DNA from: Candidatus Omnitrophota bacterium | GTDB lineage: Bacteria > Omnitrophota > Gorgyraeia > 2-01-FULL-45-10 | Assembly (NCBI GenBank): GCA_041650805.1 | Contig: JBAZKM010000006.1 | Span: 17,837 to 81,836 of the forward strand | Reading direction: 5' to 3' | Length of the DNA: 64,000 nt | Shown: one piece after another, positions 4,510-50,224 of the stretch | How the letters are laid out: the number at the start of each line of letters is the position of its first letter | Numbering within the stretch: position 1 is the first letter of the stretch | Program-made: the position numbers and the translations under genes | Notes under the pieces: generated by a model | What the model saw: the letters and a program-made list of their open reading frames with translations, nothing else | What the model was told of the DNA's origin: nothing | Database searches by the model: none

Positions 4510-4518
4510 GAGGCAGAC

Positions 4519-6224: not shown

Positions 6225-6263
6225 CTGTCAGCTTTCAGCTTTTTAAATAATAAGACCATCGAA

Positions 6264-24075: not shown

Positions 24076-24487
24076 GGGGGTGACAGGCATCGACCTAGGT
24101 AAATACGGTAAGGGTGGCATGTAGAGGTTGCTAGGAGGCCTCTTTAAACACCTGGCAAAAATCAAATGCTGACAACGTAAAAGTGCCAGCTACGGTAAAC
24201 GAGCTTCTGGCTACCATGCAAGTGGTACCGGGGCCCGTTCTACCACAAGCGTTACCTTTATAAGGTAACCCGTTAACCGGCCTCTTCCTGCGGGGCCGGA
24301 TTAGCGTCGCTAGCAGGATGGTCTCTCCGGTTTATCCTTCGGCCGGTGAGATGAGATCGTCAAAGGATACCTTCGCGAAATTCCTCCTATTGAAGTTCGG
24401 GAAGGGAACTCAAAGATTAGGATAAACATGTAGATGCCTTTATTGTGGTATCTGGGGACGCGAGTTCGAATCTCGCCACCTCCACCA
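24076..24487 (+). ncRNA. ssrA: tmRNA (SsrA), one-piece
   Basis: Starts GGGGGUGACAGG...CGAC. Ends with a tRNA-like T-arm/acceptor: GGACGCGAGUUCGAAUCUCGCCACCUCCACCA. Lies immediately downstream of smpB. Confidence 0.85.
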
Positions 24488-33505: not shown

Positions 33506-33584
33506 GGTGGGCGTAGCTCAGCTTGGATAGAGCACCTGGCTGTGGCCCAGGGTGTCGCCGGTTCAAATCCGGTCGCCTACCCCA
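33506..33584 (+). tRNA. tRNA-His (anticodon GTG) with G-1 and discriminator C, CCA encoded
   Basis: G-1 followed by GTGGGCG paired with CGCCTAC (one G-U). Anticodon loop CUGUGGC. T-loop GGTTCAAATCC. Confidence 0.8.
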
Positions 33585-33887: not shown

Positions 33888-35489
33888 TTAGGCGAGCCCT
33901 GCGGTTAATGTCTGCCACATCTTTTTCTGCTTATTCCAGGATATTTCTCTGGTGATCTCATTCATTTTGTATTCGGGGATCAGTTGGATGATGTTATTAT
34001 CTGAAAAGAGAATCTCTTCCTGTATGCTAGGCGCGAGCATCAGCATATTTAGAAGAAGATACATTTTAGTGTGCGTTATATTGAGCCAATCAGCCACCTG
34101 TTTTAAATCTTTAGCCTTGCCGTCTTCAAGTAATCCTTGTATTTGATACGCTAATATTAAAAATTGGCGCAGCTTAGGCTCCTTTAGGATCGCCACAGCT
34201 TTAGGTGTCTCACGTACAAGGCTTGTTGCCAAATCTACATTGAATTCGTAAATTTTAGTAGAGCTTTGCAGTGTTATAAAGACCTTTTTACTCTCGGCTT
34301 CATAAAGTACAACTTTTACTAAGGCGAGAATCGTTTCACGTTGCCTCTCAAATGGCAGGTTCTCCCACGTTCCTGTAGCTATGTTTCTGTTGTCGGAGAT
34401 CTGGCGCAGACACAGCATGATCTGATTCTCGAATCTTAATGCGTTAACGGTCTTTGAAGGGCAATTCTCATAGCCTCGCTTTTGCGCGTTTAAACAAACG
34501 TAGTAAAAGTATTTCCATTTATGATTTTTGGTAGAGTATGCGTATATCATAGAGCTATCGCATGGCTTGCAGCGGACTATTTGGCTTAATAGGCCGATGT
34601 TTTTATGCGGTTTTACTTTTTTCTCGCGTCTATTCTCGTCCAAAATAGTTTGGACCTTATTAAAGACTTCTTCGCTGATTATCGCTTCATGCTGTCCCTG
34701 GTACACCTGCTTGCCTTTGTAGTTAATCTTGCCGATATAGAGCATATTACGCAGCATTAGCTGCATGCTCGTAGCCTTAAATGGAACACCGCCTGACATC
34801 TTACCCTTCCTTAGGTATTGTTTGGTTCGATAACCCCTTTTGTTGAGGATCATGGCTACGGAAAGGAGGGAGCGTTCCTTGGTATAAAGGTCAAACATTT
34901 CTCGGATAATTCGAGCCTCAGCCTCATTGATTACGATCTTATGATTTTCCTTATCGAGGTTATAGCCTAAGGCTGGCCTACCGCCCATCCACTGGCCTTT
35001 CTTGCGCGCAGCGCCCATTTTGTCGCGTGTGCGCTCGGATATGATCTCACGCTCGAACTGTGCGAAAGAGAGCAGAATATTGAGCGTAAGTCGTCCCATT
35101 GACGTATTTGTGTTAAAATGCTGCGTTACGGATACGAAGGCTACGTTATTTTGATCAAAAAATTCCAGCAGCTTACTAAAATCGAGCAATGAGCGCGATA
35201 GTCTGTCTACTTTGTAGACCACCACGCATCCTATTTTCCCAGACTTGATGTCTATTATCAGTTTTTGCAGCGAAGGACGTTCAGTAGTTGCGCCTGAAAA
35301 CCCTGCATCGTCATAGTGATCAGCTAACGTGATCAATCCTTCGGATTTTTGGCTTAGTATATAGCTTTCTGCTGCCTCGCGCTGCGCGTCAAGCGAGGTG
35401 AATTCCTGCTCCATGCCGTCATTCGTAGAAACACGCGTATAGATGGCGCAGGGGATAGGCTTCTTATCTTGTGTTAATTTGTCATCCAT
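33888..35489 (-). CDS. Large serine recombinase (resolvase/invertase N-terminal domain, recombinase domain, zinc-ribbon)
   Basis: Catalytic N-terminus (CAIYTRVSTNDG ... YKVDRLSRSL). 533 aa. C-terminal Cys cluster (CKPCDS...C). Confidence 0.85.
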   Translation of the reverse strand: MDDKLTQDKKPIPCAIYTRVSTNDGMEQEFTSLDAQREAAESYILSQKSEGLITLADHYDDAGFSGATTERPSLQKLIIDIKSGKIGCVVVYKVDRLSRSLLDFSKLLEFFDQNNVAFVSVTQHFNTNTSMGRLTLNILLSFAQFEREIISERTRDKMGAARKKGQWMGGRPALGYNLDKENHKIVINEAEARIIREMFDLYTKERSLLSVAMILNKRGYRTKQYLRKGKMSGGVPFKATSMQLMLRNMLYIGKINYKGKQVYQGQHEAIISEEVFNKVQTILDENRREKKVKPHKNIGLLSQIVRCKPCDSSMIYAYSTKNHKWKYFYYVCLNAQKRGYENCPSKTVNALRFENQIMLCLRQISDNRNIATGTWENLPFERQRETILALVKVVLYEAESKKVFITLQSSTKIYEFNVDLATSLVRETPKAVAILKEPKLRQFLILAYQIQGLLEDGKAKDLKQVADWLNITHTKMYLLLNMLMLAPSIQEEILFSDNNIIQLIPEYKMNEITREISWNKQKKMWQTLTAGLA

Positions 35490-35498
35490 AGTTTTCTC

Positions 35499-35969
35499 TT
35501 ATAGTTTAAAGAAATCAAACGCATTCCAATTTGTACCTGTTATAACCAAGGTAACGGCAGATATGGACTTATAAATCTTACCCTCATACTCAAAGCCTCG
35601 TTCAAGCACTTTTACCTCGAGTTTTTTGCCCTTATACATCCTTATGATTTTGCTTCCCGGGATAGGTAGCCTTTTATCTCTAAATGGCCTGTATGAATAG
35701 TTCTGATTAGCGGCTTCTGGGTCAGGCCGGAGAACCTTATTATTAATGGGATCATACTTAGCAATAAGTTCCTTAATGCGTTTTTGCGCCTTTTCTGATA
35801 TGCTGCCATATTCGAGCTCCTGAAGCCTGTAAGCTATCCGCCTGATCAGATATCTTCTGTTATGCGAGAACTCACCCGGCTCCTTAAAGAGGCCCTTATA
35901 GGCCTCTTGCAGCTCGTAGGCATTCAGCTTAGTTATGGCTGCAATTTTGGCTTCTATTGGCTTTTCCAT
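35499..35969 (-). CDS. Small recombinase-associated protein (DUF2924-like)
   Basis: 156 aa. Located immediately upstream of, and co-oriented with, the large serine recombinase, the arrangement typical for DUF2924. Confidence 0.45.
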   Translation of the reverse strand: MEKPIEAKIAAITKLNAYELQEAYKGLFKEPGEFSHNRRYLIRRIAYRLQELEYGSISEKAQKRIKELIAKYDPINNKVLRPDPEAANQNYSYRPFRDKRLPIPGSKIIRMYKGKKLEVKVLERGFEYEGKIYKSISAVTLVITGTNWNAFDFFKL

Positions 35970-36111
35970 AGGTATCTACCCTCAGTCATATATAGGCATA
36001 GGTTTCGAGGTATAGCAAGTCATATAGAGAGGTATTTTTGATTGTTAAAAGGGGTCAAAAGTAATATAATAAACTACGAGTTACTACATTTTGTTATAAG
36101 AGAGGGCGATT

Positions 36112-36288
36112 ATGGAAACTTTTACCGTAGAAGATTTAGCGAAATATCTTAAACTGCATACATTCACTGTCCGGCGCCTAGCCAGAGAAGGGAAGATACC
36201 ATCTTTCAAGGCTGGTGGGCAATGGCGGTTCCGCAAAGATGAGATAGAAAATTGGTCTCGAAATAACAGATCAGAAGGAAGTAAATGA
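36112..36288 (+). CDS. Excisionase-family helix-turn-helix DNA-binding protein (58 aa)
   Basis: METFTVEDLAKYLKLHTFTVRRLAREGKIPSFKAGGQWRFRKDEIENW matches the excisionase/MerR-like HTH pattern (…KVGGxWRFRKxDI). Stop overlaps the SNF2 start (ATGA). Not in the ORF track because it is under 60 aa. Confidence 0.7.
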   Translation: METFTVEDLAKYLKLHTFTVRRLAREGKIPSFKAGGQWRFRKDEIENWSRNNRSEGSK

Positions 36289-39227
36289 TCACCGATTATC
36301 ACGCTAAATATTTTGCATATGAATTAACAAAACGATGCGCTTCGGATAGCCTGGAAAAGCTTTCGTCCACGCTTTCTAACGCGCAAGTTGACCTTAATCC
36401 CCATCAAATCGAAGCTGCTCTTTTTGCTTTTCGCTCACCACTCTCAAAAGGCGCAATTCTGGCTGATGAGGTAGGTCTTGGTAAAACCATTGAAGCAGGA
36501 ATCGTTCTGTCTCAGAAATGGGCAGAAAGAAAACGTAAGATATTACTTATTGTTCCATCGAGTTTACGTAAACAGTGGAATGCAGAACTCCAAGAGAAGT
36601 TTTTTCTACCATCGATAATATTAGAAACGAAATCCTTTAATCGATATATTAAGGATGGTAATCTTAACCCCTTTGATCAGAAAGACGTAATAATTATTAG
36701 TTCTTATCATTTTGCACGGGCAAAGGCGTCATATTTAAAACAGACTAAATGGGATCTTGTAGTTATCGATGAAGCGCATCATTTGCGTAATGTCTATAAA
36801 AGTAGCAACAAGATTGCAAGAGAGATAAAAGATGCATTGAGTGAAATACCAAAGGTCTTATTAACAGCTACTCCTCTCCAGAATTCGTTGCTTGAATTGT
36901 ATGGTCTTACCAGCGTTCTTGATGAACATCTCTTTGGTGATTTGAAAAGTTTCAAAGCGAAATATGCTCGCGTTTCGCGTGAACAGGATATTTATGAGAG
37001 CGAATTAGGTTTAGTCGAACCCAAGCAGGAGATGTTTACAGAGCTTAGGAATCGTCTTAAACCGGTATGCACTCGTACATTACGTCGTCAGGTACTAGAG
37101 TATATAAAATATACAAAGCGTATTCCTCTGACACAGGACTATATTCCAACAGAGCAGGAAATCGAACTCTACAATGGTATGTCCGAATATCTGCAGCGCC
37201 CAAGACTCTTTGCATTACCTACAAGCCAGCGTCAATTAATTACACTTGTTTTGCGTAAACTCCTGGCCTCTTCGTCATTCGCTATTGCTAGCACTCTCGA
37301 CAGCTTAGTTTATAAGCTTAAGAGGCTTATAGAAGAAGCTGAGAAGCAGCAAGCTACACAGGAAGAAGGTATCCCTGGGCTTGAACAAAACTTTGAGGAA
37401 TATGACGAGCTATCGGATGAATGGAATGATAACGAAGAGGAGGATGAAGAGAAGGCCGATGAGAAAAAGAAATATACTAAAGAAGATATTGATTTAATGA
37501 AGCAGGAAAAGATCGATCTTGAGAAATTTCGTGAACTGGCTAAGAAGATATGGAAAAACTCAAAGGGGGAAGCCCTGCTTATTGCACTTAAAAAAGGTTT
37601 TGAGATGACGGCAGAGCTTGGGGCACAAAAGAAAGCCGTCATTTTTACAGAATCTACAGTTACCCAAAGTTATCTGTTAAAGTTGCTTTCGGAAAACGGA
37701 TATGAAGGTAAGATAGTTTTATTCAATGGCTCTAATAATGATGCTCGTTCAAAAGAAATCTATCAGGAGTGGATTAAGAAGAACAAAGATACAGATAAAA
37801 TTACGGGCTCTAAAACAGCGGATCTACGTGCGGCCCTAATAGAATACTTTAAAAATGATGCAGAAATAATGATTGCTACTGAAGCGGGTGCTGAGGGCGT
37901 TAATCTACAATTCAGCTCACTAGTTATTAATTATGATTTACCCTGGAACCCTCAAAGAATTGAGCAGCGCATTGGTCGCTGTCATCGATACGGCCAGAAG
38001 CACGATGTTGTGGTAATAAACTTTGTGAATCGAAAGAATGCAGCCGATCAACGTGTATATGAGCTATTGGATCAAAAGTTTAACTTATTCAAGGGTGTAT
38101 TCGGTGCAAGCGATGAGATCCTCGGTAGTATAGAATCTGGGGTAGACTTTGAGAAACGGATCGCAGCTATCTACCAGACTTGTCGAAGTGAAGAAGAAAT
38201 TAACTCTGCTTTTGATTCTCTTCAAGAAGAGATGGATGATAGTATAAAAAATAATCTTAGAGAAACACGCCAAAAACTTTTAGAAAACTTTGACGCAGAA
38301 GTTCATGAAAAACTCAAAGTCAATATTAGAGAAAGCCAGGCTTATCTGGACATTTACGAGCATTGGCTATGGGATACGACAAGACACTATCTTGGTGATG
38401 CTGCAGAGTTTTCAGAGCATGAATATTCTTTCTTACTTAAAAGGAACCCATTCCCTGGAGAAAGTAGCATAGATTCTGGCCCATACAAAATTGGGAAGAA
38501 CATAGAAGATGCACATATATATCGCCCAGGGCATCCTTTGGCACAAAGAATACTTGGCGAGGTCAAAAAAAAAGAATTAGAAGATGCCGAAGTAGTTTTT
38601 GATTACTCCAAGAATTCAACTATAATATCAGTTCTGAAGCCTCTTATAGGAAGATCTGGAATTTTAAAAGTGAGCAATTATACTTTAGAGGCGCTTGAAG
38701 CAGAAGATAGGGTATTGGTAATGGCTTTAGATGATAAGGATGATGTAATTCCTCAGGATGTTGCAAAGAAGCTATTCTCTCTCACTGCTGAATCTATCAT
38801 AGCTAAGAATAGCATTTCTGATGATGGAAATAAGAAATTAGATATACTTGAACAAGAATCTGTAGATCTTATCACTACGCGTTGTGCTGAGCGCAACAGT
38901 GAATTTTTTGACAGTGAAGTCGATAAGTTGGACAGGTGGGCAGATGATATGAAGACAGCCCTTGAATTGGAATTAAAAAAGTTGGATATCGATATCAAAG
39001 CTGCTAAGACATTGGCAAAGAAGAATGTGAATTTGGATGAAAAACTTAAAGCGCAACGCGCAGTCAAAGATATGGAAAAGAAGCGCAACGAGATGCGTAA
39101 AAAACTCTATGAAGCGCAAGATGAAGTCGATAATAGAAAAGAAGATTTGATTGCGCGTGTAGAGTCTCAGCTCAAACAAACAACGAGTTTAACCACGCTT
39201 TTTACAATTCGCTGGAAAGTAATATAA
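36285..39227 (+). CDS. SNF2-family helicase (DEAD/DEAH-box ATPase with helicase C domain)
   Basis: Helicase motifs I LADEVGLGKTIEAG, II DEAHHLRN, III TATPLQN, VI QRIGRCHRYGQ. 980 aa with a long coiled-coil C-terminus. Confidence 0.85.
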   Translation: MITDYHAKYFAYELTKRCASDSLEKLSSTLSNAQVDLNPHQIEAALFAFRSPLSKGAILADEVGLGKTIEAGIVLSQKWAERKRKILLIVPSSLRKQWNAELQEKFFLPSIILETKSFNRYIKDGNLNPFDQKDVIIISSYHFARAKASYLKQTKWDLVVIDEAHHLRNVYKSSNKIAREIKDALSEIPKVLLTATPLQNSLLELYGLTSVLDEHLFGDLKSFKAKYARVSREQDIYESELGLVEPKQEMFTELRNRLKPVCTRTLRRQVLEYIKYTKRIPLTQDYIPTEQEIELYNGMSEYLQRPRLFALPTSQRQLITLVLRKLLASSSFAIASTLDSLVYKLKRLIEEAEKQQATQEEGIPGLEQNFEEYDELSDEWNDNEEEDEEKADEKKKYTKEDIDLMKQEKIDLEKFRELAKKIWKNSKGEALLIALKKGFEMTAELGAQKKAVIFTESTVTQSYLLKLLSENGYEGKIVLFNGSNNDARSKEIYQEWIKKNKDTDKITGSKTADLRAALIEYFKNDAEIMIATEAGAEGVNLQFSSLVINYDLPWNPQRIEQRIGRCHRYGQKHDVVVINFVNRKNAADQRVYELLDQKFNLFKGVFGASDEILGSIESGVDFEKRIAAIYQTCRSEEEINSAFDSLQEEMDDSIKNNLRETRQKLLENFDAEVHEKLKVNIRESQAYLDIYEHWLWDTTRHYLGDAAEFSEHEYSFLLKRNPFPGESSIDSGPYKIGKNIEDAHIYRPGHPLAQRILGEVKKKELEDAEVVFDYSKNSTIISVLKPLIGRSGILKVSNYTLEALEAEDRVLVMALDDKDDVIPQDVAKKLFSLTAESIIAKNSISDDGNKKLDILEQESVDLITTRCAERNSEFFDSEVDKLDRWADDMKTALELELKKLDIDIKAAKTLAKKNVNLDEKLKAQRAVKDMEKKRNEMRKKLYEAQDEVDNRKEDLIARVESQLKQTTSLTTLFTIRWKVI

Positions 39228-39235
39228 GGAGTCCT

Positions 39236-40924
39236 ATGAACGGAAGAAAACAAAAATTAGAATTAACATGGATTGGAAAAGAAGAAGAGTTAAGGCTAGA
39301 GCCTAGAATATTAATTGAAGATCCAAAAAAATCTTATGGAGATCCGAAATCAGAAAACGTACTTATTCATGGCGATAATCTTCTAGCGCTTAAGGCACTA
39401 GAACAAGATTTTGCAGACAAAATTAAGTGTATTTATGTCGATCCACCCTTTAACACCGGAGCAGCTTTTGAGCATTATGATGATAGCATTGAACATTCAA
39501 TTTGGCTTCAGTTAATGCGACATCGCTTGGGGTTGTTACGTAATTTACTTAGAGACGATGGATGTATATTTATTCAGCTTGATGATAGCGAGGCATCTTA
39601 TTGTAAAGTCATGATGGATGAAATATTTGGAAGAAATAATTATCTCAATCAAATTTCCGTATCAACGAATAAGCCATTTGGATACAAAAGTACTGCCGCA
39701 TCATTATTTCAACAAGCGAACCAGTTACTTTTTTATGCAAAAAACAAGGATAGTTTTGTTCTAAACGAAAATAAACTATTTATTGAGCGCGAATACGATA
39801 CACAGTATAAATGGGTATTTGATAATATAACTAAACCTGAAAATCAATGGACTTGGAGAAGCATTAATGAAGTTGTTTCTGAAAAACTTGGTTTTTCTTC
39901 ATATGCAGAGGCCAAGAAAAAAATATCAAAGCAGGAAATTGAAACTGAAATTGCTATATTTGCTTTAAACAATGCTAACAAGGTGTTTAGGACTGCATCC
40001 GTAACGGGTGGGGCATTTCTAAAAAGAAAAGATACAATAAAACTATCAAAAGAAAATAAGGCAAAAATTATTAGACATCCAGGCGACGATATGAACTACA
40101 TATTTATTGGTGGAGAAAGAGTTATTTACTATTCAGAGAGATTAATTGAGATTGAAGGTAACCATGTGCCAGGAGAGCTTATTACAGATATGTGGACGGA
40201 TATATCTGTAGAAGGATTAGCAGCCGAAGGAGGGGTTGATTTTCCAAAAGGTAAAAAACCAGAAAAGTTGATTCAAAGATGTATTGAGCTAACGTCATCC
40301 ATAGGAGATTATGTGCTTGATAGTTTTTTGGGATCTGGCACAACATCTGCTGTCGCTCATAAAATAAATCGTCGTTGGATTGGCATAGAGTTAGGAAGCC
40401 AAGCCAATACTCATTGTTTGCCACGTCTGAAGTCGGTAGTTAATGGCTCGGATCAAAGCGGAATTTCAAAAGCAGTAATTTGGAAGGGCGGTGGCGGGTT
40501 TAAATTTTATGAACTTGCGCCAAGTTTACTTCGCAAAGACCAGCATGGAAACTGGGTTATCGATGAAAAATACAACGCCAATATGTTGGCTGCCGCAATG
40601 TGCAAGCATGAGGGGTTTAAATTCTTTCCCGATGAAACCGTATATTGGAAACAAGGTAAATCTACAGAGACTGATCATATTTTTGTTACAACTTCTTTCG
40701 TAACTGTTGAGCAACTGGATAAAATTCATGAAGAAATGAAACGTGGCGAAAGCCTGCTCATATGCGCAAAGTCATTTGCTCCGCCCTGTAAAGATAGACA
40801 TAATAACATTACAATCAAAAAGATTCCTCAGATGATTTTAGGAAGATGTGAATTCGGTAAAGATAACTACGATTTAAATATCATAAATATGTCTAAGGAT
40901 AGCTCTAAAGAATCCGAGGATTGA
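39236..40924 (+). CDS. mod: DNA methyltransferase (N6-adenine/N4-cytosine, beta-class), type III Mod-like
   Basis: Motif IV YVDPPFNTG precedes motif I DSFLGSGTTSAVA (circularly permuted beta order). A central variable region suggests a target-recognition domain. Confidence 0.8.
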   Translation: MNGRKQKLELTWIGKEEELRLEPRILIEDPKKSYGDPKSENVLIHGDNLLALKALEQDFADKIKCIYVDPPFNTGAAFEHYDDSIEHSIWLQLMRHRLGLLRNLLRDDGCIFIQLDDSEASYCKVMMDEIFGRNNYLNQISVSTNKPFGYKSTAASLFQQANQLLFYAKNKDSFVLNENKLFIEREYDTQYKWVFDNITKPENQWTWRSINEVVSEKLGFSSYAEAKKKISKQEIETEIAIFALNNANKVFRTASVTGGAFLKRKDTIKLSKENKAKIIRHPGDDMNYIFIGGERVIYYSERLIEIEGNHVPGELITDMWTDISVEGLAAEGGVDFPKGKKPEKLIQRCIELTSSIGDYVLDSFLGSGTTSAVAHKINRRWIGIELGSQANTHCLPRLKSVVNGSDQSGISKAVIWKGGGGFKFYELAPSLLRKDQHGNWVIDEKYNANMLAAAMCKHEGFKFFPDETVYWKQGKSTETDHIFVTTSFVTVEQLDKIHEEMKRGESLLICAKSFAPPCKDRHNNITIKKIPQMILGRCEFGKDNYDLNIINMSKDSSKESED

Positions 40925-40925
40925 T

Positions 40926-43601
40926 ATGGATCAAAAAGCACAAGCAATTAAGAATAGATTGAGTTTAAGAAAGCCACAAGCTGATAGCTTGGAGATATTG
41001 GCAAAGCTAGCGGATATGTTGGAACTCAAGAAATCTATTGATGTCAATGGTGAGCTAAGTAAAGTACGGGCGTTATACCCCACTTGTACTGATTTTGAAC
41101 GAGATTTTCCTTCCTTATGCTTCTCTTTGGCTACGGGTGTTGGTAAAACACGTCTTATGGGTGCATTTATTAGTTATTTATATGTGTCCAAGGGTATCCA
41201 GAATTTCTTTGTTTTGGCGCCCAACCTTACCATTTATAATAAACTAATTGATGATTTATCTAATCCCAGCAGTCCTAAATATGTTTTTAAGGGTATTGCT
41301 GAATTTACGGCTACGCCACCGCGCATAGTTACTGGGGATAATTACCAGGAGGTGCGTCAAGGGCAAGGGCTACTATTTAAGTCAGTAAATATTAATATAT
41401 TTAATATCTCTAAGATTAATTCTGAAGTACGCGGCGGGCGCGAGCCACGTATCAAGCGGTTATCAGAATATCTTGGGGAGTCTTATTTTAATTATCTGGC
41501 ATCTTTGCCTGATCTAGTTTTATTAATGGATGAATCTCACCACTATCGTGCCGATGCCGGATTACGTGCAATCAATGAATTGAAACCGATTATAGGTTTA
41601 GAATTAACTGCTACTCCGATTGATACGCACTCCAATAAATTCAAAAATGTTGTTTTTGACTATCCCTTAGCGTTAGCACTTCGTGATGGGTTCGTAAAAG
41701 AGCCTGCAGTAGCTACGCGTAAGAATTTTAACCCCGATCAATATCGCAGAGATCCAAAAGAGCTCGATCTAATAAAACTTGAAGATGGCGTACGTATTCA
41801 TGAAGATACAAAGGTTGCCCTTGATATTTATGCCCGCGACACGGGAAATAAGCTTGTGAGGCCTTTTGTATTAGTAGTTGCGCGAGATACGGATCATGCC
41901 AAAGAAATTAGAGCATTGATTGAATCCGATCGGTTTTTTGAAGGTCGATATCGTGGAAAGGTTATGGAGATTCACTCTAATCAACGTGGAGAAGAAAAGG
42001 AAGAAAATGTTCAGCGGCTCCTGGAGCTAGAAAAACCAGGCAATCCAATCGAGCTAGTAATTCACGTTAACATGCTTAAAGAAGGATGGGACGTTACCAA
42101 TCTGTATACTATAATTCCTTTACGTGCGGCAAATTCTCAGATTTTAACCGAACAAACAATAGGGCGTGGATTACGGCTTCCTTATGGTGCAAGAACCGGT
42201 GTTAGCAAGGTTGATAAACTCACTATTATTGCTCATGATCGTTTTCAAGCCATCGTAGATGCTGCCAATGACCCAAATTCCATCATTCGTAAGGAGAACA
42301 TCATTGAGATAGAACCAGAATCTTTACCTCCTTCCCAAGAAGTAGTTACGGCAAGTTCAACTATGGAAAGCGAACTTATTCAAAAGCGTCAAGAAATTTG
42401 CGACATAAAAAATGAAATCGAACGCCAAAAGGCGATTTTTACTCTTGACGCCCGGCAAACAATCGTGGAAACAGTAAATGCTCTTGGTGGGGAGGTTAAA
42501 AACTTAAACGATTTAAAGAGCGATGAAGGTCGTAAGATAGCTCTTGCTAGGATGGCTGAGCGTATTGAGAGTGCTCCCCAGCAAGATCTATTTAAAGGTG
42601 AAATGCTCGAAGCAATTAAAAAAGAGTATGAAGCGGTTATTGAAGAATTAATCGATAAGACTATTCCCATTCCTCGCGTTCTTATTCAGCAGAAAAATAC
42701 TGTTGAATGCGGATTCCATGATTTTGATTTGGATGTAGGTGGATTAAATTATCAACCAGTTTCAGAAGAGATAGTTAGAAGGACCTTACGTACTAATGAA
42801 AGTGAGACGTTAGCAAGTGATGGTGTTGGAGTAGTACGTGACACCGCAGAGAATATAATCGTTAACGAACTTATTAATTATTCGGATGTGGAGTATGATC
42901 GCGAAGCAGAGCTGCTCTATAAATTAACTAGGCAAGCAATCACCAGGCTCGGACAAGGGAAAAGGGAAGAGGATTTACGAAACATTGTGCTATATCATAA
43001 GCGCGAAATAGGTCAATATATCTATGTGCAGCTACAGAAAAATTTCTATCTAAAAAGCGCTGGATTTGAAGAGCCAGTCATTTATCCATTTACAAAGATT
43101 GAACCACATAACTTCTCAAAATATTCTGCAGATAGTGTGCATCATTTTACAGAGACCATTACACCAACGCATTCTATACCGACAAAGGTGTTTGGTGGCT
43201 TTAAGAAGGCTTGCCACAATTTATATAAGTTTGATTCCAAGGCAGAGAAGGACTTCTCAATGATTCTGGAGCAGGATAAAGACGTGATTAAATGGTTGCG
43301 CCCAGCTCAGGCGCAGTTTGCTATATACTGGAAACATAATTCTCATCGATATACACCAGATTTTGTGGTTGAAATGAACGAATCGATTTATCTAGTAGAG
43401 ATTAAGGCCGAGATAGACATTGATGAAGCTGATGTTAAGGAGAAAGCGCAGGCTGGCAACGAATATTGTAATATTGTCACCACATACTACAGAAGCAATA
43501 GAGGAAAGCAATGGAAGTATTCTCTAATTCCTCATACAGCAGTGACGCTTAGCATGAGCGCGCTCGGATTGCTTGAGGGAAATGTTATCAGGCTTCGATA
43601 A
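40926..43601 (+). CDS. res: Type III restriction endonuclease Res subunit (helicase plus PD-(D/E)xK nuclease)
   Basis: Walker A TGVGKTRLM, DEAH box LLMDESHHY, helicase C motifs. C-terminal PD-ExK (TPDFVV...YLVEIKAE). Separated from mod by 1 nt. Confidence 0.75.
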   Translation: MDQKAQAIKNRLSLRKPQADSLEILAKLADMLELKKSIDVNGELSKVRALYPTCTDFERDFPSLCFSLATGVGKTRLMGAFISYLYVSKGIQNFFVLAPNLTIYNKLIDDLSNPSSPKYVFKGIAEFTATPPRIVTGDNYQEVRQGQGLLFKSVNINIFNISKINSEVRGGREPRIKRLSEYLGESYFNYLASLPDLVLLMDESHHYRADAGLRAINELKPIIGLELTATPIDTHSNKFKNVVFDYPLALALRDGFVKEPAVATRKNFNPDQYRRDPKELDLIKLEDGVRIHEDTKVALDIYARDTGNKLVRPFVLVVARDTDHAKEIRALIESDRFFEGRYRGKVMEIHSNQRGEEKEENVQRLLELEKPGNPIELVIHVNMLKEGWDVTNLYTIIPLRAANSQILTEQTIGRGLRLPYGARTGVSKVDKLTIIAHDRFQAIVDAANDPNSIIRKENIIEIEPESLPPSQEVVTASSTMESELIQKRQEICDIKNEIERQKAIFTLDARQTIVETVNALGGEVKNLNDLKSDEGRKIALARMAERIESAPQQDLFKGEMLEAIKKEYEAVIEELIDKTIPIPRVLIQQKNTVECGFHDFDLDVGGLNYQPVSEEIVRRTLRTNESETLASDGVGVVRDTAENIIVNELINYSDVEYDREAELLYKLTRQAITRLGQGKREEDLRNIVLYHKREIGQYIYVQLQKNFYLKSAGFEEPVIYPFTKIEPHNFSKYSADSVHHFTETITPTHSIPTKVFGGFKKACHNLYKFDSKAEKDFSMILEQDKDVIKWLRPAQAQFAIYWKHNSHRYTPDFVVEMNESIYLVEIKAEIDIDEADVKEKAQAGNEYCNIVTTYYRSNRGKQWKYSLIPHTAVTLSMSALGLLEGNVIRLR

Positions 43602-43664
43602 TCTAATAAGTAATGAATATTTCCGAGAAATATATGAAAACAATAACTGTTAAAGAATGTTAGT

Positions 43665-44771
43665 ATGTCAAAAATTACTTCTACAATCTGGGAAATAGAG
43701 CCGCATACGGAAGCTAAGCATGCAATTTTAAGAAAATATTTAGATGCATGGTTGCCCATAATTAGCAGGTGGAATGGAAGGGTTGTTTACATTGATGGTT
43801 TCGCAGGGCCTGGCGAATATATAGGTGGTAAAGAAGGTTCCCCCATAATTGCAATTAAAGCCGTAATGGAGCATAGACTAAAGCTTCGGATGACCGCAGA
43901 ATTTATGTTTATTTTTATAGAAGCTGATACTGAAAGATGCGAGTATTTACAAACAAAACTTAGTGCGTTAAAATTGCCTTCTAATTTAAAATATGAATGT
44001 GTCTGTAAAAAATTTGAAGACGTAATAAAGAGTACGTTAAATAAGTTAGATGAGCAAAAAACGAGGCTTGCCCCCTCCTTTGTTTTTATTGATCCGTTTG
44101 GTTATTCAGGCATCCCATTTGTATTAATAAAACGTATTATGGAAAATCCTAATTGTGAAGTTTTAATTACTTTTATGTATGAAGAAATTAATAGATTTGC
44201 GCAAGATACCAGGTCTGACAATATTTTAGATGAGACTTTCGGGACTGATAAGTGGCGCGAGGTACGAAAAGAAACAGATCCGAATAAGCGCTGTTATTAT
44301 CTTCACGATCTTTACAAAGGTCAATTACAGCATGAAGCTGGAATAAAGTTTGTTCGTTCATTTAAGATGATTAATAGTATGAATAAACCAGATTACTTTC
44401 TTTTCTTTGGCACTAATGAAATTACAGGATTGAAGAAAATGAAGGAAGCAATGTGGAGAGTTGATGAAACGGGCTCATTTCAATTTTCAGATGCTACGTA
44501 TGACCCTAATCAAGCCTTTTTGTTTGAGTTAGAACCAAATTATGTTAAGCTGAAAAATATTATCGTAAAGAATTTTAAAGGTAAAACAGTTAGCGTGGAA
44601 GAGCTTGAGAATTTTATTCTCACAGAAACGCCTTTTACTCAGAATCATTATAAGCGAGCAATTTTAGCAAAAATGGAAAAAACTGATCCTCCAGAAATTA
44701 AGGTTCAAAGTAAAGGCGCTAAAAGAAAAAAGGGGACATTCCCAGGTCAAACTACTATACAGTTTATTTAG
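43665..44771 (+). CDS. TcmP-like protein (three-Cys-motif partner protein family), with SAM-MTase-like motifs
   Basis: N-terminal TIWEIEPHTEAKHAILRKYLDAWLPI...YIDGFAGPGEY and FVFIDPFGYSG resemble the TcmP family (motif I/IV-like). Assignment from memory of the family signature. Confidence 0.45.
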   Translation: MSKITSTIWEIEPHTEAKHAILRKYLDAWLPIISRWNGRVVYIDGFAGPGEYIGGKEGSPIIAIKAVMEHRLKLRMTAEFMFIFIEADTERCEYLQTKLSALKLPSNLKYECVCKKFEDVIKSTLNKLDEQKTRLAPSFVFIDPFGYSGIPFVLIKRIMENPNCEVLITFMYEEINRFAQDTRSDNILDETFGTDKWREVRKETDPNKRCYYLHDLYKGQLQHEAGIKFVRSFKMINSMNKPDYFLFFGTNEITGLKKMKEAMWRVDETGSFQFSDATYDPNQAFLFELEPNYVKLKNIIVKNFKGKTVSVEELENFILTETPFTQNHYKRAILAKMEKTDPPEIKVQSKGAKRKKGTFPGQTTIQFI

Positions 44772-44783
44772 GTGAATTAAACA

Positions 44784-45569
44784 ATGCAAACCATAGACAG
44801 AAAAACATTGCTGTACAAAAGTGGCGTAGAATATGCCGACTTTTGCTTAAACCATGTGGAAGGGTGTTCTCACGGCTGTAAATACCCCTGCTATGCGTAC
44901 ATGATGAAGAGACGCTGTGGCATTGTTAAAACATATGATGAATGGTGCAAGCCAAAACTAGTGGCTAATGCATTAGAACTCTTGGATAAAGAGATACCTA
45001 AATATAAAGATACTATAAAATATGTCCATATGTGCTTTTCTACAGACCCATTTATGTATCAACAGGAACGGGTATGTGATCTAAGTTTAAAAATAATAGA
45101 TAAGCTTAACTTAAATGAAATCAGATGCACCGTATTGACCAAAGGTATTTTCCCAAGAGAAATTGCCAAAATAAATGGTTTTAGTAGAAATAATGAGTAT
45201 GGCGTTACATTAGTTTCTTTGGATGAAAAATTCCGCCAGAGTTATGAACCGAATGCAGCTCCATTTAGGAATAGGATTCAATCGCTCAAATATCTTCATG
45301 ATAAAGGATATAAAACATGGGTAAGCATGGAGCCGTACCCAACGCCTAATTTTATTGAACAAGATTTGAGAGAGATTTTAGATGCCGTATCATTTGTCGA
45401 TAAAATTATATTCGGACGTATAAACTACAATGCCAAGGCGTCGGAGTTTAAACATACGAAGGAATTCTATAATAACCTAGCCTGTTCAGTGGTAAAATTT
45501 TGTAAGCATCATAAAATTAATTATCATATCAAGCAAGGAACTCATACTGAAAATGAGAACCCATTCTAA
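44784..45569 (+). CDS. Three-Cys-motif (CxxxCxxxC) radical-SAM/SPL-like protein, partner of the TcmP-like protein
   Basis: NHVEGCSHGCKYPCYAY gives a Cys triad with 3-residue spacing instead of the canonical CxxxCxxC. 13 nt downstream of the TcmP-like gene. Confidence 0.45.
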   Translation: MQTIDRKTLLYKSGVEYADFCLNHVEGCSHGCKYPCYAYMMKRRCGIVKTYDEWCKPKLVANALELLDKEIPKYKDTIKYVHMCFSTDPFMYQQERVCDLSLKIIDKLNLNEIRCTVLTKGIFPREIAKINGFSRNNEYGVTLVSLDEKFRQSYEPNAAPFRNRIQSLKYLHDKGYKTWVSMEPYPTPNFIEQDLREILDAVSFVDKIIFGRINYNAKASEFKHTKEFYNNLACSVVKFCKHHKINYHIKQGTHTENENPF

Positions 45570-47136
45570 TCATATAAATATCTATAGACTCAAGCATGAG
45601 ATATCTAAAATCCCAGGGATATCGCTCGCGAGTATTGAACAGTCATATGAGATAGAAAAAGAAGCAACCGTGAATGGTATAAAATATAGGTTATATATTC
45701 AGCGAAGTTTTCCGCATACACCAAAGTGGTGCAGATTTCTCGATCAATTAATTGACAAATCTAAGCCTAAAATTAGATCAAGCACTTCTAGTTTTATATT
45801 ATTCGCAGAATATAATAGCAGGGCTTACGCTCTAACGGGCGGTTTTGGCCATACAAAAATAAAAGATCTTATTGATGAAGAGTTTGGGCTACATATGGCG
45901 CTTAGGTTAATAGACCCAAAATTGATAACTGGCATTTTCCAGAAATCGATGAAAGGCGATACGCGTCAAATTTATAGAGCTGTTATAGGCTACAAGCCGG
46001 AGCTAGATCTCGAGAATTTCAATAGAATTTTGAGGGCAGTTGAAGGTAAAACATCCGATAGATTTTTTGGCATGCGAGTTTCTGGGAGGGCATCCCTCTC
46101 TTTCAATTGTATGGTACCACTTTCTGAATTAAGCGTTTTATTTGATAAGTTAGAAGAGGTGTATAAAAAAGACAGCCCAATTTATTTCCCAAAATCTTAC
46201 GAACTGATTACAGACGATAAGCTTCTAAGTAAACTGGACAATATGTTAATTAAAGAGACCAATGATTTTATGGCAGCCAGAGAAGATAGGGACAGGCTTT
46301 ATATTGAATTAAAAGATATTAATTTGCAATTTAGAAGCACAAGATTTGAGCTTAAGGTGAAAAGGACTAAAAATGAATTCAAATATTTCAGTTTAGAAGA
46401 TATTCGCGATGCCCTAGCCAAAAATCAAACGACGCATTTTAACAAATGCGATGATATGTTGCACATTAAAATTAGCGGATTTGATGAGTCAAATAATGTT
46501 GTATTTGAAGATGAGCCGTTGTTGAAAATGTTAGTGTTTGAAGTCGATCATAACAATAGATCCTACTTTTTTATTGATAAAAAATGGTATCACATTTACC
46601 CAGATTTCAAGAACCATGTAGATTCAGACATTGCTCGTATTAGTGTGGATCGTCGTCTTATGCCTGCATGGGACGACAGTAAGTTAGGCGTGGGCAAGGG
46701 GGAAAGAGAATATAACATATATACAAGCGGATTGAAGGGATGGAACAACTTAGATAGGGATTGCGTGCGAATGACGGATGAAACCCCTATAGAGGTTTGC
46801 GATTTATACAATAAGATAAATCGTCAATTAATTCATGTTAAAAAAGTATGGGGATCAAAGACAAGTTATTTATTTGCTCAAGGTGCCGTGTCAGCGGAGG
46901 TGCTCTATCAGTCGCAGGAATTCAGGGATGCGTGCATAACAAAATGGCCCTCATTATTTGATCATACGTTACCGCAAGGGCATAGAGTAGTCTATGCGAT
47001 TGCTGATAATAAAACCCAAGACGCAAGTTTTCCCAGAAATTTAACTTTTTTTTCAAAAGTTAATTTAATGCAAACAGTATCACGATTAGAGATACTAGGG
47101 TATGATGTTATTTTAGCATCGATACGGGTTGACTAA
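45553..47136 (+). CDS. Hypothetical 527-aa protein in the defence cluster
   Basis: Long ORF with AT-rich codon usage like its neighbours. No motif recognised. Overlaps the previous gene's stop. Confidence 0.5.
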   Translation: MRTHSNHINIYRLKHEISKIPGISLASIEQSYEIEKEATVNGIKYRLYIQRSFPHTPKWCRFLDQLIDKSKPKIRSSTSSFILFAEYNSRAYALTGGFGHTKIKDLIDEEFGLHMALRLIDPKLITGIFQKSMKGDTRQIYRAVIGYKPELDLENFNRILRAVEGKTSDRFFGMRVSGRASLSFNCMVPLSELSVLFDKLEEVYKKDSPIYFPKSYELITDDKLLSKLDNMLIKETNDFMAAREDRDRLYIELKDINLQFRSTRFELKVKRTKNEFKYFSLEDIRDALAKNQTTHFNKCDDMLHIKISGFDESNNVVFEDEPLLKMLVFEVDHNNRSYFFIDKKWYHIYPDFKNHVDSDIARISVDRRLMPAWDDSKLGVGKGEREYNIYTSGLKGWNNLDRDCVRMTDETPIEVCDLYNKINRQLIHVKKVWGSKTSYLFAQGAVSAEVLYQSQEFRDACITKWPSLFDHTLPQGHRVVYAIADNKTQDASFPRNLTFFSKVNLMQTVSRLEILGYDVILASIRVD

Positions 47137-47188
47137 ACGTTGTAACAGATAGATATATGTTAAAGAGTTCCGGCATAAGGAAGTAGCC

Positions 47189-47734
47189 ATGGTAAAACAT
47201 ATCGATCCTAATAAGATAAGGGTTGGGGATGTAATTCTTGTCGCGACCAAAACAAAAGTCACCATTGAAACTCAGCAAAAGCTTGGTTACGGTGAAAGTA
47301 GCAAATGGACTCACGTTGCTGGCAGTATTGGTGCTTATGATTTAGTGGAAGGGCAAATTCCAAAAGCGAGAGTTTGTGATCTGCAGAAAGACTATGTCGA
47401 AGCTGGATTTGAAATAAGAGTTATGCGTAGGAGTTATGAAAATGATGGGGACCGCATAAAAGTTGCGCTATGGTGGGCTACCATGAATAATATTCCTTAT
47501 GATTACCTTCAGTTATTATGGTTTCCAATAGCTGGGTACATCGGGAAAGCATTATTGACTATGAGGAATGTATTTAATGCAAAAAAACGACTGATCTGCT
47601 CTGAGTTAATAACCAACGGGTTTTATAAACAAGGCTATAATTTATTTAATAGACTAGCAGAAGGCGTTCTTCCAGCTGATTTCGACAATAATAAATTGTT
47701 TGATGAAATAACCGATATCTGGCTTAGCGAGTAA
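47189..47734 (+). CDS. Permuted papain-like (YiiX/DUF830-type, NlpC/P60 superfamily) putative amidase
   Basis: His (WTHVAG) precedes Cys (RLICSELI) in a small ~180-aa protein, the permuted arrangement. Confidence 0.35.
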   Translation: MVKHIDPNKIRVGDVILVATKTKVTIETQQKLGYGESSKWTHVAGSIGAYDLVEGQIPKARVCDLQKDYVEAGFEIRVMRRSYENDGDRIKVALWWATMNNIPYDYLQLLWFPIAGYIGKALLTMRNVFNAKKRLICSELITNGFYKQGYNLFNRLAEGVLPADFDNNKLFDEITDIWLSE

Positions 47735-47834
47735 GTAATCCTATACAGCCTCTAAATACGGTGCTAGCTCCCAGGAGTGAAAATTAGATTGACAAGATAT
47801 ACATGATATGTTATACAGTATACATGGTGAATGA

Positions 47835-48257
47835 ATGGCACTAATATTTGATAAGAGTGAATATACCCCTGCGCAACTTGCTAAAATCCTGAGCGAAGAA
47901 TACGGCCATAAAGTTACAGCTGCCGTAATTCGCAAATGGGATAACGAGATTTTTGATGGGATCTCAAGCAGGACAAGGGGGGAGGCTGAGGCGCGATCTT
48001 ATAGTGGCAGCGATATTCATTTCTTTAATGCAATTGCAGTATTAAGAAATTTGGGATATAGCGTCAATGACGTAAAGAATATTCTATTTCAAGTTGCTGC
48101 TTACGGAGCTAATAAAGACAGCAAAATGGCTAAACCGGACATAGTTATTGATACAGGCAAGCAAAGAATAGTTATAGAGATCAAAGGGCAGATGGAAAAG
48201 CAAAAGAAGGCTTTTAACGACCTTGAGAAGTATATTGAGATAGTAAAAAATAAATAG
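47835..48257 (+). CDS. MerR-family HTH transcriptional regulator-like protein
   Basis: N-terminal YTPAQLAKILSEEYGHKVTAAVIRKWDNE is a MerR-type HTH. Confidence 0.5.
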   Translation: MALIFDKSEYTPAQLAKILSEEYGHKVTAAVIRKWDNEIFDGISSRTRGEAEARSYSGSDIHFFNAIAVLRNLGYSVNDVKNILFQVAAYGANKDSKMAKPDIVIDTGKQRIVIEIKGQMEKQKKAFNDLEKYIEIVKNK

Positions 48258-48358
48258 GAATTTTTTTTGTCTAGTGGGTTATACGCTGTGTAACATGGTA
48301 TGTATAAGGTATACCTATCTTATACTCACCATATAACAACAAAATCTAAAAAAAGGGG

Positions 48359-48541
48359 GTGATTCGAGTGGAGCCTATGATTAAGGTCGAATGCGTTGAG
48401 TGTAATAGCAGGTACTACGTTCTCGCTGGCGATAGAAATTTACTGTTGCCAGGGGATATTAAGCAGGGCGAGGCATTTCCGAATAGATGTCCGCTATGCA
48501 AGGAAGGCGCATATGCAGTGTTAGCAGAAGAAGCGAAGTAG
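48359..48541 (+). CDS. Small zinc-ribbon protein
   Basis: CVEC...CPLC pair in 60 aa; GGGGG RBS upstream. Confidence 0.4.
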   Translation: MIRVEPMIKVECVECNSRYYVLAGDRNLLLPGDIKQGEAFPNRCPLCKEGAYAVLAEEAK

Positions 48542-48609
48542 CAGAGATTGATCGGCCCCGGGCGTCTATATTCCCGGGGCTGGTCAGCATAACATTAAAG
48601 GAGGTAGCA

Positions 48610-48939
48610 ATGTCACATTATTTCTTATGTGGATTGGAGTACAAGTGGGACTTGATTAGAGAAACATCCTCTAGCCAAAAGTTTATTGTTGATGTTGGCG
48701 ATTATTGGGGACTTAAAGCCACGTTCGATATCCATTACACAAAGCCTGAAATAGCGTATGTAACCGTATGTCTTATCGGGCCAAAGGAGTATTTTACTGA
48801 TGGGCTAAGCCATTGGTTGTTTGCTGATTTAGAAAAAATAATCGAAAAGCACGGTGACTATGGCGTCATAGATTATGCTCTCGTTTTCAGTGATCATTTG
48901 TGTAATGGAAATTACAGTATGGAGTCATTTTCAGCATAA
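48610..48939 (+). CDS. Hypothetical protein (109 aa)
   Basis: GGAGG RBS 7 nt upstream of ATG 48610. The long ORF-track start at 48487 is probably an upstream extension. Confidence 0.4.
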   Translation: MSHYFLCGLEYKWDLIRETSSSQKFIVDVGDYWGLKATFDIHYTKPEIAYVTVCLIGPKEYFTDGLSHWLFADLEKIIEKHGDYGVIDYALVFSDHLCNGNYSMESFSA

Positions 48940-48952
48940 AAAGGAGGACAAA

Positions 48953-50224
48953 ATGATAATAAGAAAAGTACCTGTGTCAGAGATCAATCCCGCTACTTAC
49001 AATCCGCGCGTGGATCTCAAGCCGAGCGATCCAGAGTACCAAAAGCTTAAAAAAAGCATAGATACTTTTGGATATATCGATCCGATTGTCTGGAATGAAA
49101 AGACAGGAAATTTGGTAGGGGGGCATCAAAGATTAAAAATTCTTATTGCATACGGCTTAAAGGAGATCGAGGCAAGCATAGTAAGCTTAGGTCTGGAGAA
49201 AGAGAAGTTGCTCAATCTCGCTTTAAACAAAGCATCCGGCCTATGGGATGAGGATAAACTTGCAGCGTTATTGGATGAGCTTATGAAGATGCCGGACTTG
49301 GATATTTCTATATCCGGTTTTGATTTGCCGGAAATCAGCCACTATATTGACCAGGCGCGTGATTTGGCAGATGACGATGACCTGGACTATCAGAAAGAGG
49401 CTGAGGCTATCATAACGCCTGAAACAAAAGAGGGGGAGCTGATTATTTTGGGTCCGCACAGGATATTATGTGGAGACTCAGCGAACCCGGAAGACCTAGC
49501 AAGGCTTATGAACGGTGAAAAGGCGGATATGGTCGATACAGACTATCCTTATAATGTGAACTATGGCGGAGGGGATAAGCCTGATCCTAATACGCGTCCC
49601 AAAGACTCGCGGAAATGGCCTCAGATCTATGCTGATAACATGCCTCAGGCAGAATATGAGATATGGATGAAGAAGGTGCTTACCAATATCAAGCACTGTG
49701 TAAGACCAGGGGCTGCGTTTTACATTTGGCAGGGATTACGCCAAATACCACCATTATGCCAAAGTCTAATTGACCTAAACTTTCACGTTTCGTGCATCAT
49801 CTGCTGGTTGAAGGAGTCGCCGGCAATCACATATGCAGATTACTGCTACAGGACGGAACAGTGTTTGTACGGATGGCTTGAGGGAGCGCCTCACTATTGG
49901 GCAGGTAAGCCTGCCGAAAGCAATGTCTGGGAGGTGCATAGAGACTCAACTAAGGCTTATAGCCATCCTACGCAAAAACCTGTGCAGTTAGGTCAGCACG
50001 CCATCAGAAATAGCTCCAAGATTAACGATATTGTCTTGGATGTATTTCTCGGAGGCGGAGGGATCCTTTTGGCAGCGGAAAGCCTTGGCAGGCGCTGTTA
50101 CGGCTGCGATAGAGATGCACGCTACATTGACGTCTGCGTAAAAAGGTATGGAAACCTAGTAAACATCGATAAGCTTTCACCTGAAATCCGTGAACGCTAC
50201 TTTTCTAAGGAGGTTACAAAATGA
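48953..50224 (+). CDS. ParB-like nuclease domain fused to a DNA (N6-adenine/N4-cytosine) methyltransferase (phage-type)
   Basis: ParB/Srx motif VGGHQRLKIL at the N-terminus. MTase motifs DTDYPYNV (DPPY-like) and SHPTQKPVQL. AAGGAGG RBS before ATG 48953. Confidence 0.75.
   Translation: MIIRKVPVSEINPATYNPRVDLKPSDPEYQKLKKSIDTFGYIDPIVWNEKTGNLVGGHQRLKILIAYGLKEIEASIVSLGLEKEKLLNLALNKASGLWDEDKLAALLDELMKMPDLDISISGFDLPEISHYIDQARDLADDDDLDYQKEAEAIITPETKEGELIILGPHRILCGDSANPEDLARLMNGEKADMVDTDYPYNVNYGGGDKPDPNTRPKDSRKWPQIYADNMPQAEYEIWMKKVLTNIKHCVRPGAAFYIWQGLRQIPPLCQSLIDLNFHVSCIICWLKESPAITYADYCYRTEQCLYGWLEGAPHYWAGKPAESNVWEVHRDSTKAYSHPTQKPVQLGQHAIRNSSKINDIVLDVFLGGGGILLAAESLGRRCYGCDRDARYIDVCVKRYGNLVNIDKLSPEIRERYFSKEVTK

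Follow-up and report, generated by a model that had tools for sequence, protein, structure and literature searches.

A candidate two-enzyme DNA base-modification cassette of TcmP and a radical-SAM partner in the defence region of a likely prophage of an Omnitrophota bacterium

The 64,000-nucleotide stretch of the genome of Candidatus Omnitrophota bacterium analysed here (assembly GCA_041650805.1, contig JBAZKM010000006.1, positions 17,837 to 81,836; hereafter the window) contains two adjacent genes encoding a TcmP protein of 368 amino acids (aa) and a radical S-adenosylmethionine (SAM) protein of 261 aa, followed by an open reading frame (ORF) of 527 aa. Our best guess from the sequences is that the first two genes form a two-enzyme DNA base-modification module that a likely prophage carries in its defence region. 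An earlier note on this DNA had grouped all three ORFs together. Their features, with positions counted from the first letter of the window, are the following:

43659-45544, plus strand: two-gene TcmP/radical-SAM cassette, with bounds set by blastn DNA homology to two related loci, L134 and L135
43665-44771, plus strand: TcmP gene, ORF of 368 aa; predicted RlmJ-like class I methyltransferase core at about aa 1-270 and a C-terminal winged-helix domain
43794-43814, plus strand: TcmP motif I, D44-G-F46-A-G48-P-G50 (SAM-binding loop)
44091-44102, plus strand: TcmP motif IV-like D143-P144-F145-G146
44496-44666, plus strand: TcmP C-terminal winged helix-turn-helix, aa 278-334 (Pfam PF22560 GMT-wHTH, E 3.7e-08)
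44784-45569, plus strand: radical-SAM partner gene, ORF of 261 aa (PF04055, E 5e-11), from a family without a specific curated model
44865-44891, plus strand: radical-SAM cluster motif C28-S-H-G-C32-K-Y-P-C36 (CX3CX3C)
45553-47136, plus strand: DUF6119/TIGR04141 gene, 527 aa, neighbouring and independent, with a predicted PD-(D/E)xK-like C-terminal core

The TcmP and radical-SAM genes are separated by a gap of 12 nucleotides (nt). The assignment of the first protein to the TcmP type and the methyltransferase-like motifs seen in it by the earlier note are borne out by the model TIGR04474, matched with 226.7 bits (cutoff 53) over model positions 1-262 of 263; the gene also adjoins that of a three-Cys-motif protein, the second mark by which TIGR04474 is recognized. 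In addition, TcmP matches component A of the PADLOC candidate systems PDC-M30 (E 2e-73) and PDC-M41, while no PDC-M30B was present among the matches listed for eight neighbouring proteins (the best 25 for three of them). Among 59 divergent TcmPs, the motif I residues D44, F46, G48 and G50 are kept in 93-96% of sequences and D143 and P144 in 100%, followed by F or Y at position 145 (47/59) and G at position 146 (42/59). Other residues kept among divergent subtypes are K18, Y25, G58-S-P and R177, and the elements D44xFxGxG, G58-S-P and D143-P144 are retained at 83-100% despite a median TcmP identity of 21%. Conservation between subtypes does not extend to the winged-helix region, and some TcmPs at other loci measure no more than about 250-300 aa.

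TcmP has the fold of a SAM-dependent methyltransferase, apparently of RlmJ type, and its motif I is intact. RlmJ is the 23S rRNA m6A2030 methyltransferase of Escherichia coli. Identity to RlmJ and the 2oo3 family is only 12-13%, and TcmP differs from them in its extra winged helix, its radical-SAM partner and its mobile-element context. Motif IV is DP[FY]G in TcmP, whereas that of RlmJ is DPPY. Sequence searches of solved structures produced no meaningful match for the TcmP, radical-SAM or DUF6119 protein, and a PHROGs search returned matches to families of unknown function only.

The 261-aa protein matches the Pfam Radical_SAM model PF04055 with 43.5 bits (cutoff 29.5, E 5e-11) over model positions 2-165 of 166. 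More specific models fit it poorly: the DUF5131 model gives 18.8 bits, below its cutoff of 28.9, PDC-M41B just E 3.6e-4, and the PA0069 and Rv2578c models weak matches (50.9 versus a cutoff of 360 and 47.6 versus 430; E about 1e-13), with the "mobile pair B" model also far under its cutoff. No specific model for the family was found in Pfam, NCBIfam or PADLOC. From the sub-threshold PA0069, Rv2578c and DUF5131 matches the protein is judged to fall on the SplB/COG1533/DUF5131 side of the superfamily. RadicalSAM.org groups spore photoproduct lyase (SPL) and DUF5131 in one megacluster (PMC9477430), and relatives of the window protein bear the JGI label "DNA repair photolyase." The earlier description of this protein as a radical-SAM, SPL-like enzyme holds as far as the superfamily and this side of it are concerned; it does not extend to the SPL family proper, since the SPL model PF20903 has no match to the window protein at E ≤ 0.01, while SPL-family partners of other TcmPs match it at E 6e-15. 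The window partner shares with SplB/COG1533 proteins the small size and the signature G-C-x-H-x-C-x-Y-(P)-C-Y-A, but differs in the proline insertion and in its low score (50.9 versus 360). It also has an obligate TcmP partner, which SPL is not known to have.

The cysteine triad, noted earlier as GCSHGCKYPC, lies in the context G-C28-S-H-G-C32-K-Y-P-C36-Y-A and is conserved in homologues. C28, H30, C32 and C36 are 100% conserved both in an alignment of 18 close homologues and in 50 full-length representatives of 50%-identity clusters, which are about 40% identical to the window protein; among 59 sequences from different phyla the three cysteines are conserved at 98% or more. A profile search of 1.8 billion representative sequences yielded 2347 relatives, and the motif was found in 106 of the best 150 inspected, the remaining 44 looking like fragments that lack the N terminus. 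The proline form C-x3-C-x-[YFW]-P-C is present in 84 of these 106 and the canonical form C-x3-C-x-[YFW]-C in 22. Compared with the CX3CX2C motif plus aromatic residue of PF04055, the window protein has the three invariant cysteines and the aromatic Y34, and P35 makes the spacing CX3CX3C. The motif thus reads as the canonical CX3CX2C into which one proline has been placed behind the conserved aromatic residue, and this argues that the proline-expanded site probably still binds a [4Fe-4S] cluster. The earlier suggestion that the unusual spacing is itself an SPL-like trait had to be dropped: SPL-family partners of TcmP carry CX3CX2C, and CX3CX3C is specific to the family found in the window. No description of a CX3CX3C radical-SAM motif was found in the literature searched; the lone mention of "CX3CX3C," for NifB, looks like loose notation.

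A protein search with the radical-SAM partner produced 5372 matches at E ≤ 0.001, and a close relative is encoded by at least 589 of 185,579 species genomes (one genome per species). The hosts include Omnitrophota, Nitrospirota, Planctomycetota, Patescibacteria, Firmicutes, Nanoarchaeota and Methanosarcinales, at 60-80% identity. Almost no close relatives of this family were found in plasmids of cultured organisms and in isolate-phage collections. The window protein is a few residues longer at its C terminus than most relatives.

The genomic neighbourhood of the family was analysed in 207 related loci carrying the pair or TcmP (80 genome, 47 viral and 80 metagenome loci); these statistics rest on the best 80 matches per scan. 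In 64 of the 80 genome loci the TcmP profile detects TcmP immediately upstream on the same strand; nine leave no room for it and seven are without it, which gives 64/71 informative loci. The corresponding numbers for the 47 viral contigs are 40 with TcmP directly upstream, one with no room and six without, or 40/46 informative. Apart from TcmP no neighbour family recurs, the next-largest cluster being present in seven loci. Of the trio, co-occurrence is seen for the TcmP/radical-SAM pair; DUF6119 was found in none of the 207 loci. The TcmP and radical-SAM genes are almost always adjacent and sometimes fused: two natural fusions, of 634 aa (P0289) and 592 aa (P0296), comprise a complete TcmP and a radical-SAM domain. 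The first is present on four contigs from three sources, alone among transporter genes, indicating that the unit can work without fixed neighbours.

The reverse test, starting from metagenome TcmPs, revealed the radical-SAM enzyme directly downstream in 23 loci, each bearing the proline form of the motif; in 14 loci there is no room downstream, which leaves 43. Neighbouring ORFs were scanned in 35 of these 43, and 22 DUF5131, seven SPL-family and three Radical_SAM matches were obtained. DUF5131 partners show a cysteine spacing of CX6CX2C, SPL-like ones of CX3CX2C. TcmP thus pairs with three related radical-SAM lineages, of which that of the window is the third and has no specific curated model. 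The closest known arrangement is the TcmP/DUF5131 pair (TIGR04474 with PF07505, formerly "phage Gp37/Gp68"; PDC-M41), which likewise combines a full-score TcmP with a three-Cys radical-SAM-like partner; the sister TcmPs pairing with DUF5131 are 43-52% identical to that of the window, but the window partner is not DUF5131 by score and its cysteine spacing differs. The window partner accordingly represents a separate, very conserved radical-SAM family, marked by its proline-expanded motif, within the known but uncharacterised TcmP/three-Cys pairing. At one locus, L050, a CcrM-like adenine DNA methyltransferase (1354-2193) stands in the place of TcmP and overlaps the radical-SAM gene downstream.

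DNA comparisons define the cassette and reveal its mosaic character. In blastn alignments with L134 and L135 the sole aligned part is 43659-45544, at 83% nucleotide identity, and the flanks are unrelated; these two loci have the same recombinase and DUF2924 head as the window, but carry as cargo a PLD-SNF2 helicase and an MmeI-like enzyme. The region 43659-45544 is a self-contained two-gene cassette that moves between genomes and prophages and in most cases ends up beside restriction-modification or other defence genes. Another locus, L133, aligns with the SNF2, Mod and Res genes upstream of the window cassette and with the radical-SAM gene at 84-87% nucleotide identity. Its radical-SAM part (44787-45532) aligns at 85.5%, while the TcmP part does not: the replaced segments are the middle of Mod (about 39646-40306), which looks from the alignment like a target-recognition domain swap, and the whole TcmP gene. 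The TcmP of L133 is of another subtype, 28% identical to that of the window, and still matches TIGR04474 at E 4.5e-58.

The two genes of the cassette have evolved in contrasting ways. Across 58 adjacent pairs and the window, radical-SAM proteins have a median pairwise identity of 64.5% and TcmPs one of 21.1%, with a weak correlation between the two (Spearman 0.25). Strong purifying selection acts on both genes within a subtype, the ratio of nonsynonymous to synonymous substitution rates (dN/dS) being about 0.05; relaxed or positive selection on TcmP was considered and rejected, its within-subtype dN/dS of 0.06 being like that of its neighbours. Low dN/dS within subtypes together with high divergence between them indicates that TcmP diversity arises from subtype replacement, deep subtypes being exchanged against a nearly constant radical-SAM partner. 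A tie of TcmP specificity to the adjacent Type III Mod would fit the comparison with L133, which differs from the window in TcmP as well as in the Mod middle, but it was likewise rejected, since in L112-L120 TcmP keeps a normalised score of 0.92-0.97, whereas that of Mod falls to 0.40-0.64.

The third ORF starts 17 nt before the end of the radical-SAM gene, both on the plus strand, so that the overlap given in the earlier note is correct. The same note saw no recognisable motif in it; it is, however, a full-length member of DUF6119 (310.9 bits versus 27, E 2e-92) and of TIGR04141, "sporadically distributed protein" (280.5 versus 35, E 2e-83). A protein 100% identical to it is encoded on a 169-kb contig of a Candidatus Omnitrophota metagenome-assembled genome. 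At the DNA level, homology to related cassettes ends at 45532-45544, short of the DUF6119 start at 45553. This position and the longer C terminus of the window radical-SAM protein fit a separate insertion of DUF6119, for which 45532-45569 looks like the junction. Three closer DUF6119 homologues (about 44% identity) stand single, with neither a TcmP nor a radical-SAM gene, and the genes beside them belong to AbiEii, Type I, McrBC, GmrSD or Type ISP systems. DUF6119 is thus a separate gene outside the TcmP cassette. Among 32 diverse members the residues E384, D401, E414, D417, H428, K430 and Q443 are invariant, and in the structure model, with a predicted local distance difference test (pLDDT) score of 87.0, they sit on a helix-strand-strand-helix unit; fold scores are modest. 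Going by this model, DUF6119 is most likely a stand-alone DNA nuclease of PD-(D/E)xK type in defence islands. A pairing of DUF6119 with a small protein was also considered and rejected, because the 181-aa ORF following it in the window is unrelated to the 176-aa gene that follows a DUF6119 homologue.

The cassette is located in an island with the following further features:

33507-33584, plus strand: tRNA-His, island edge
33888-35489, minus strand: large serine recombinase, island edge
35499-35969, minus strand: DUF2924 gene, island edge
36285-39227, plus strand: SNF2 (DrmD-like) helicase gene, upstream context
39236-40924, plus strand: Type III Mod methyltransferase gene, upstream context
40926-43601, plus strand: Type III Res helicase-nuclease gene, upstream context, directly before the cassette
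47189-47734: 181-aa ORF after DUF6119, with no family match except a weak PHROG match
47835-48257: MerR-type regulator, downstream of DUF6119
48875-50224: fusion of a ParB N-terminal domain with an N6/N4 DNA methyltransferase, shortly before the terminase genes of the likely prophage

The guanine-cytosine (GC) content of the island is about 37%, compared with about 55% to its left, and the drop falls at the recombinase/tRNA-His edge. The island begins past tRNA-His and extends into the ParB-methyltransferase fusion and the terminase large subunit. The start at tRNA-His, recombinase and DUF2924, the drop in GC content and the terminase end indicate an integrated phage-like element, likely a prophage, whose accessory or defence region holds the cassette. 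The placement of the genes downstream of a restriction-modification operon and in a defence island, both asserted in the earlier note, agrees with this layout: the Type III Mod/Res pair, preceded by SNF2, is directly upstream, and the island lies inside the likely prophage. The SNF2, Mod and Res genes are tightly packed and co-oriented with the cassette. A promoter and terminator scan of 35400-49000 gave counts at or below shuffle expectation and is thus uninformative on operon structure. The high-GC host part of the window includes a 2330-aa ORF (10637-17629); a tmRNA gene is located at 24076-24487.

The DrmD-like SNF2, the Type III Mod and Res with a C-terminal TnsA-like endonuclease domain form a recurring three-gene array, present in the window (36285-43601), in L133 (1730-8939) and in L126. 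No DrmA/DrmB-like gene (DUF1998) was seen among the genes scanned, so the array does not look like classic DISARM. At other loci TcmP is often preceded immediately by a restriction-modification component (Type I, IIG, III or ISP) or by a DISARM-like or MADS-like gene, and the genes downstream of the pair are diverse, with defence genes scattered among them. L001 encodes at 3126-6302 a Type III Res-like protein with a C-terminal S24 (LexA/UmuD-type) peptidase domain, and across loci S24 domains are present in four neighbours at that upstream position, L001 included. In L134 (365-2894; also L135) a quite different defence cargo follows the recombinase and DUF2924 seen in the window, here accompanied by an HTH_17 gene. 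This element family seems to have a cargo hotspot immediately inside the integrase. Directly past the cassette, L134 (11421-16129; also L135) contains a Cas4-like PD-(D/E)xK gene, a DnaG-type primase and a 1010-aa reverse transcriptase.

Several sister TcmP/DUF5131 operons contain, next to TcmP, a mini Pol-beta of 160-200 aa consisting of palm and thumb only, which hints that TcmP systems act on DNA. These genes are located at:

L166, 1827-2429: mini Pol-beta
L168, 2137-2616: mini Pol-beta
L169, 7073-7552: mini Pol-beta
L170, 2226-2762: mini Pol-beta
L174, 4085-4621: mini Pol-beta
L186, 3357-3893: mini Pol-beta
L187, 5609-6190: mini Pol-beta

A DNA substrate for the pair is hinted at by the winged helix of TcmP, the SPL-family partner lineages, the mini Pol-beta genes and the CcrM-like adenine methyltransferase of L050. 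These links, together with the contrast between a variable and a constant partner, lead us to propose tentatively that the two enzymes act in sequence on one DNA nucleotide, TcmP choosing and methylating a base that the radical-SAM enzyme would then elaborate. TcmP would select and flip its target base, most likely adenine, and move a methyl group from SAM onto it; the partner would elaborate or rearrange the methylated base by means of a 5'-deoxyadenosyl radical. The outcome would be a hypermodified base serving as an epigenetic mark that protects the DNA of the carrier element. Target choice would lie with the variable TcmP subtypes, and the near-invariant radical-SAM enzyme would handle a constant chemical substrate. 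It is possible, although we would put it lower, that the product is an undescribed DNA base made by radical chemistry on the TcmP-methylated base, with interchangeable TcmP subtypes setting the target sequence and the radical-SAM chemistry constant across bacteria, archaea and prophages. Ordinary SAM methyl transfer and radical chemistry on adenine are combined in RlmN/Cfr, where both take place in one protein and the substrate is rRNA; this is an analogy only, as the lineage is unrelated and no homology was found.

Several observations weigh against sequential modification of DNA. RlmJ, the closest structural relative of TcmP, acts on rRNA rather than DNA, and motif IV of TcmP is DP[FY]G, not the DPPY of amino-methyltransferases. 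There is no conserved nuclease or reader partner, so that the modification would come without an obvious restriction arm, and the TcmP subtype does not track the specificity domain of the adjacent Mod. Finally, the literature on TcmP, DUF5131, DUF6119, PDC-M30/M41 and COG1533 that was searched contains no functional study, and biochemical or genetic data on any TcmP, DUF5131 or this radical-SAM family are lacking from it; in this respect the earlier remark that the pairing is poorly characterised was justified.

Instead of building a modification, the radical-SAM enzyme could, like SPL, break an abnormal bond or adduct in DNA, TcmP being a SAM-binding, base-flipping recognition subunit. Mobile elements carrying the pair would thereby survive DNA-damaging defence or toxin systems or ultraviolet light. 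Such lesion reversal would agree with the SPL Pfam family and DUF5131 among the TcmP partner lineages, the photolyase label given to relatives by JGI, the mini Pol-beta of sister operons, the LexA/S24 and Y-family polymerase genes in some neighbourhoods, and a paper returned for COG1533 (PMC4951493), on the Verrucomicrobia LexA-binding motif and the SOS response. Nevertheless, we regard it as rather unlikely: the window protein has no PF20903 match at E ≤ 0.01, a TcmP confined to recognition leaves its fully conserved catalytic-type motifs unexplained, and neither subtype swapping nor a place mainly behind restriction-modification genes is expected of repair genes. The LexA/UmuC-like neighbours are few and are common mobile-element cargo.

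The relation of TcmP to component A of PDC-M30 and PDC-M41, the location in defence islands and the combination of a conserved effector with a hypervariable partner could also indicate an anti-phage system, in which the radical-SAM protein damages nucleic acid or makes an antiviral nucleotide and the diversified TcmP senses phage cues or regulates in response to them. The ability of the cassette to stand alone and the existence of a fused form are consistent with such an arrangement. TcmP, however, retains enzyme-type motifs and not just a binding surface, no effector chemistry is known for this radical-SAM branch, and the present data contain no sign of toxicity. The cassette is, besides, usually co-oriented directly behind restriction-modification genes and is not an independent unit with its own regulator. 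A sensor-effector role is therefore unlikely.

Modification of rRNA or tRNA by the pair, after the manner of RlmJ and RlmN/Cfr, could shield translation from toxins or antibiotics, and a universal RNA substrate would be in keeping with the very strong conservation of the radical-SAM enzyme in both bacteria and archaea. Such a target would constrain TcmP too, yet TcmP is only 21% identical between loci and exchanged between subtypes, and the surroundings of the genes point to DNA (restriction-modification genes, prophages, Pol-beta and SPL-family partners), which makes an RNA substrate improbable. Least probable is a three-gene restriction-modification-like system in which the pair marks DNA and the DUF6119 nuclease restricts unmarked or marked DNA, for although DUF6119 overlaps the radical-SAM gene by 17 nt on the same strand, has a nuclease-like core and is mirrored in L134 by another PD-(D/E)xK (Cas4-like) gene after the radical-SAM gene, it is found in 0/80 genome, 0/47 viral and 0/80 metagenome loci, three of its closest homologues (about 44% identity) stand alone beside other defence genes, cassette homology ends at 45532-45544, before its start codon, and the downstream neighbours of the pair are highly diverse.

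Two-enzyme base modification of DNA thus remains our preferred, tentative interpretation of the cassette. DUF6119, which gains a predicted PD-(D/E)xK-type core and a defence-island context from the present analysis, is a separate lead, as a probable stand-alone nuclease of defence islands. The radical-SAM family, with 5372 matches and at least 589 of 185,579 species genomes in bacteria and archaea, is widespread, yet no specific model describes the family and the literature searched contains nothing on it. For enzymology, it offers a natural proline-inserted variant of the cluster motif, with canonical-motif sisters available for direct comparison. For the biology of phages and their hosts, the cassette represents a compact two-gene unit travelling with restriction-modification systems, other defence genes and prophages. 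If the cassette writes or erases a DNA mark, it would add a new layer of epigenetic discrimination between self and non-self.

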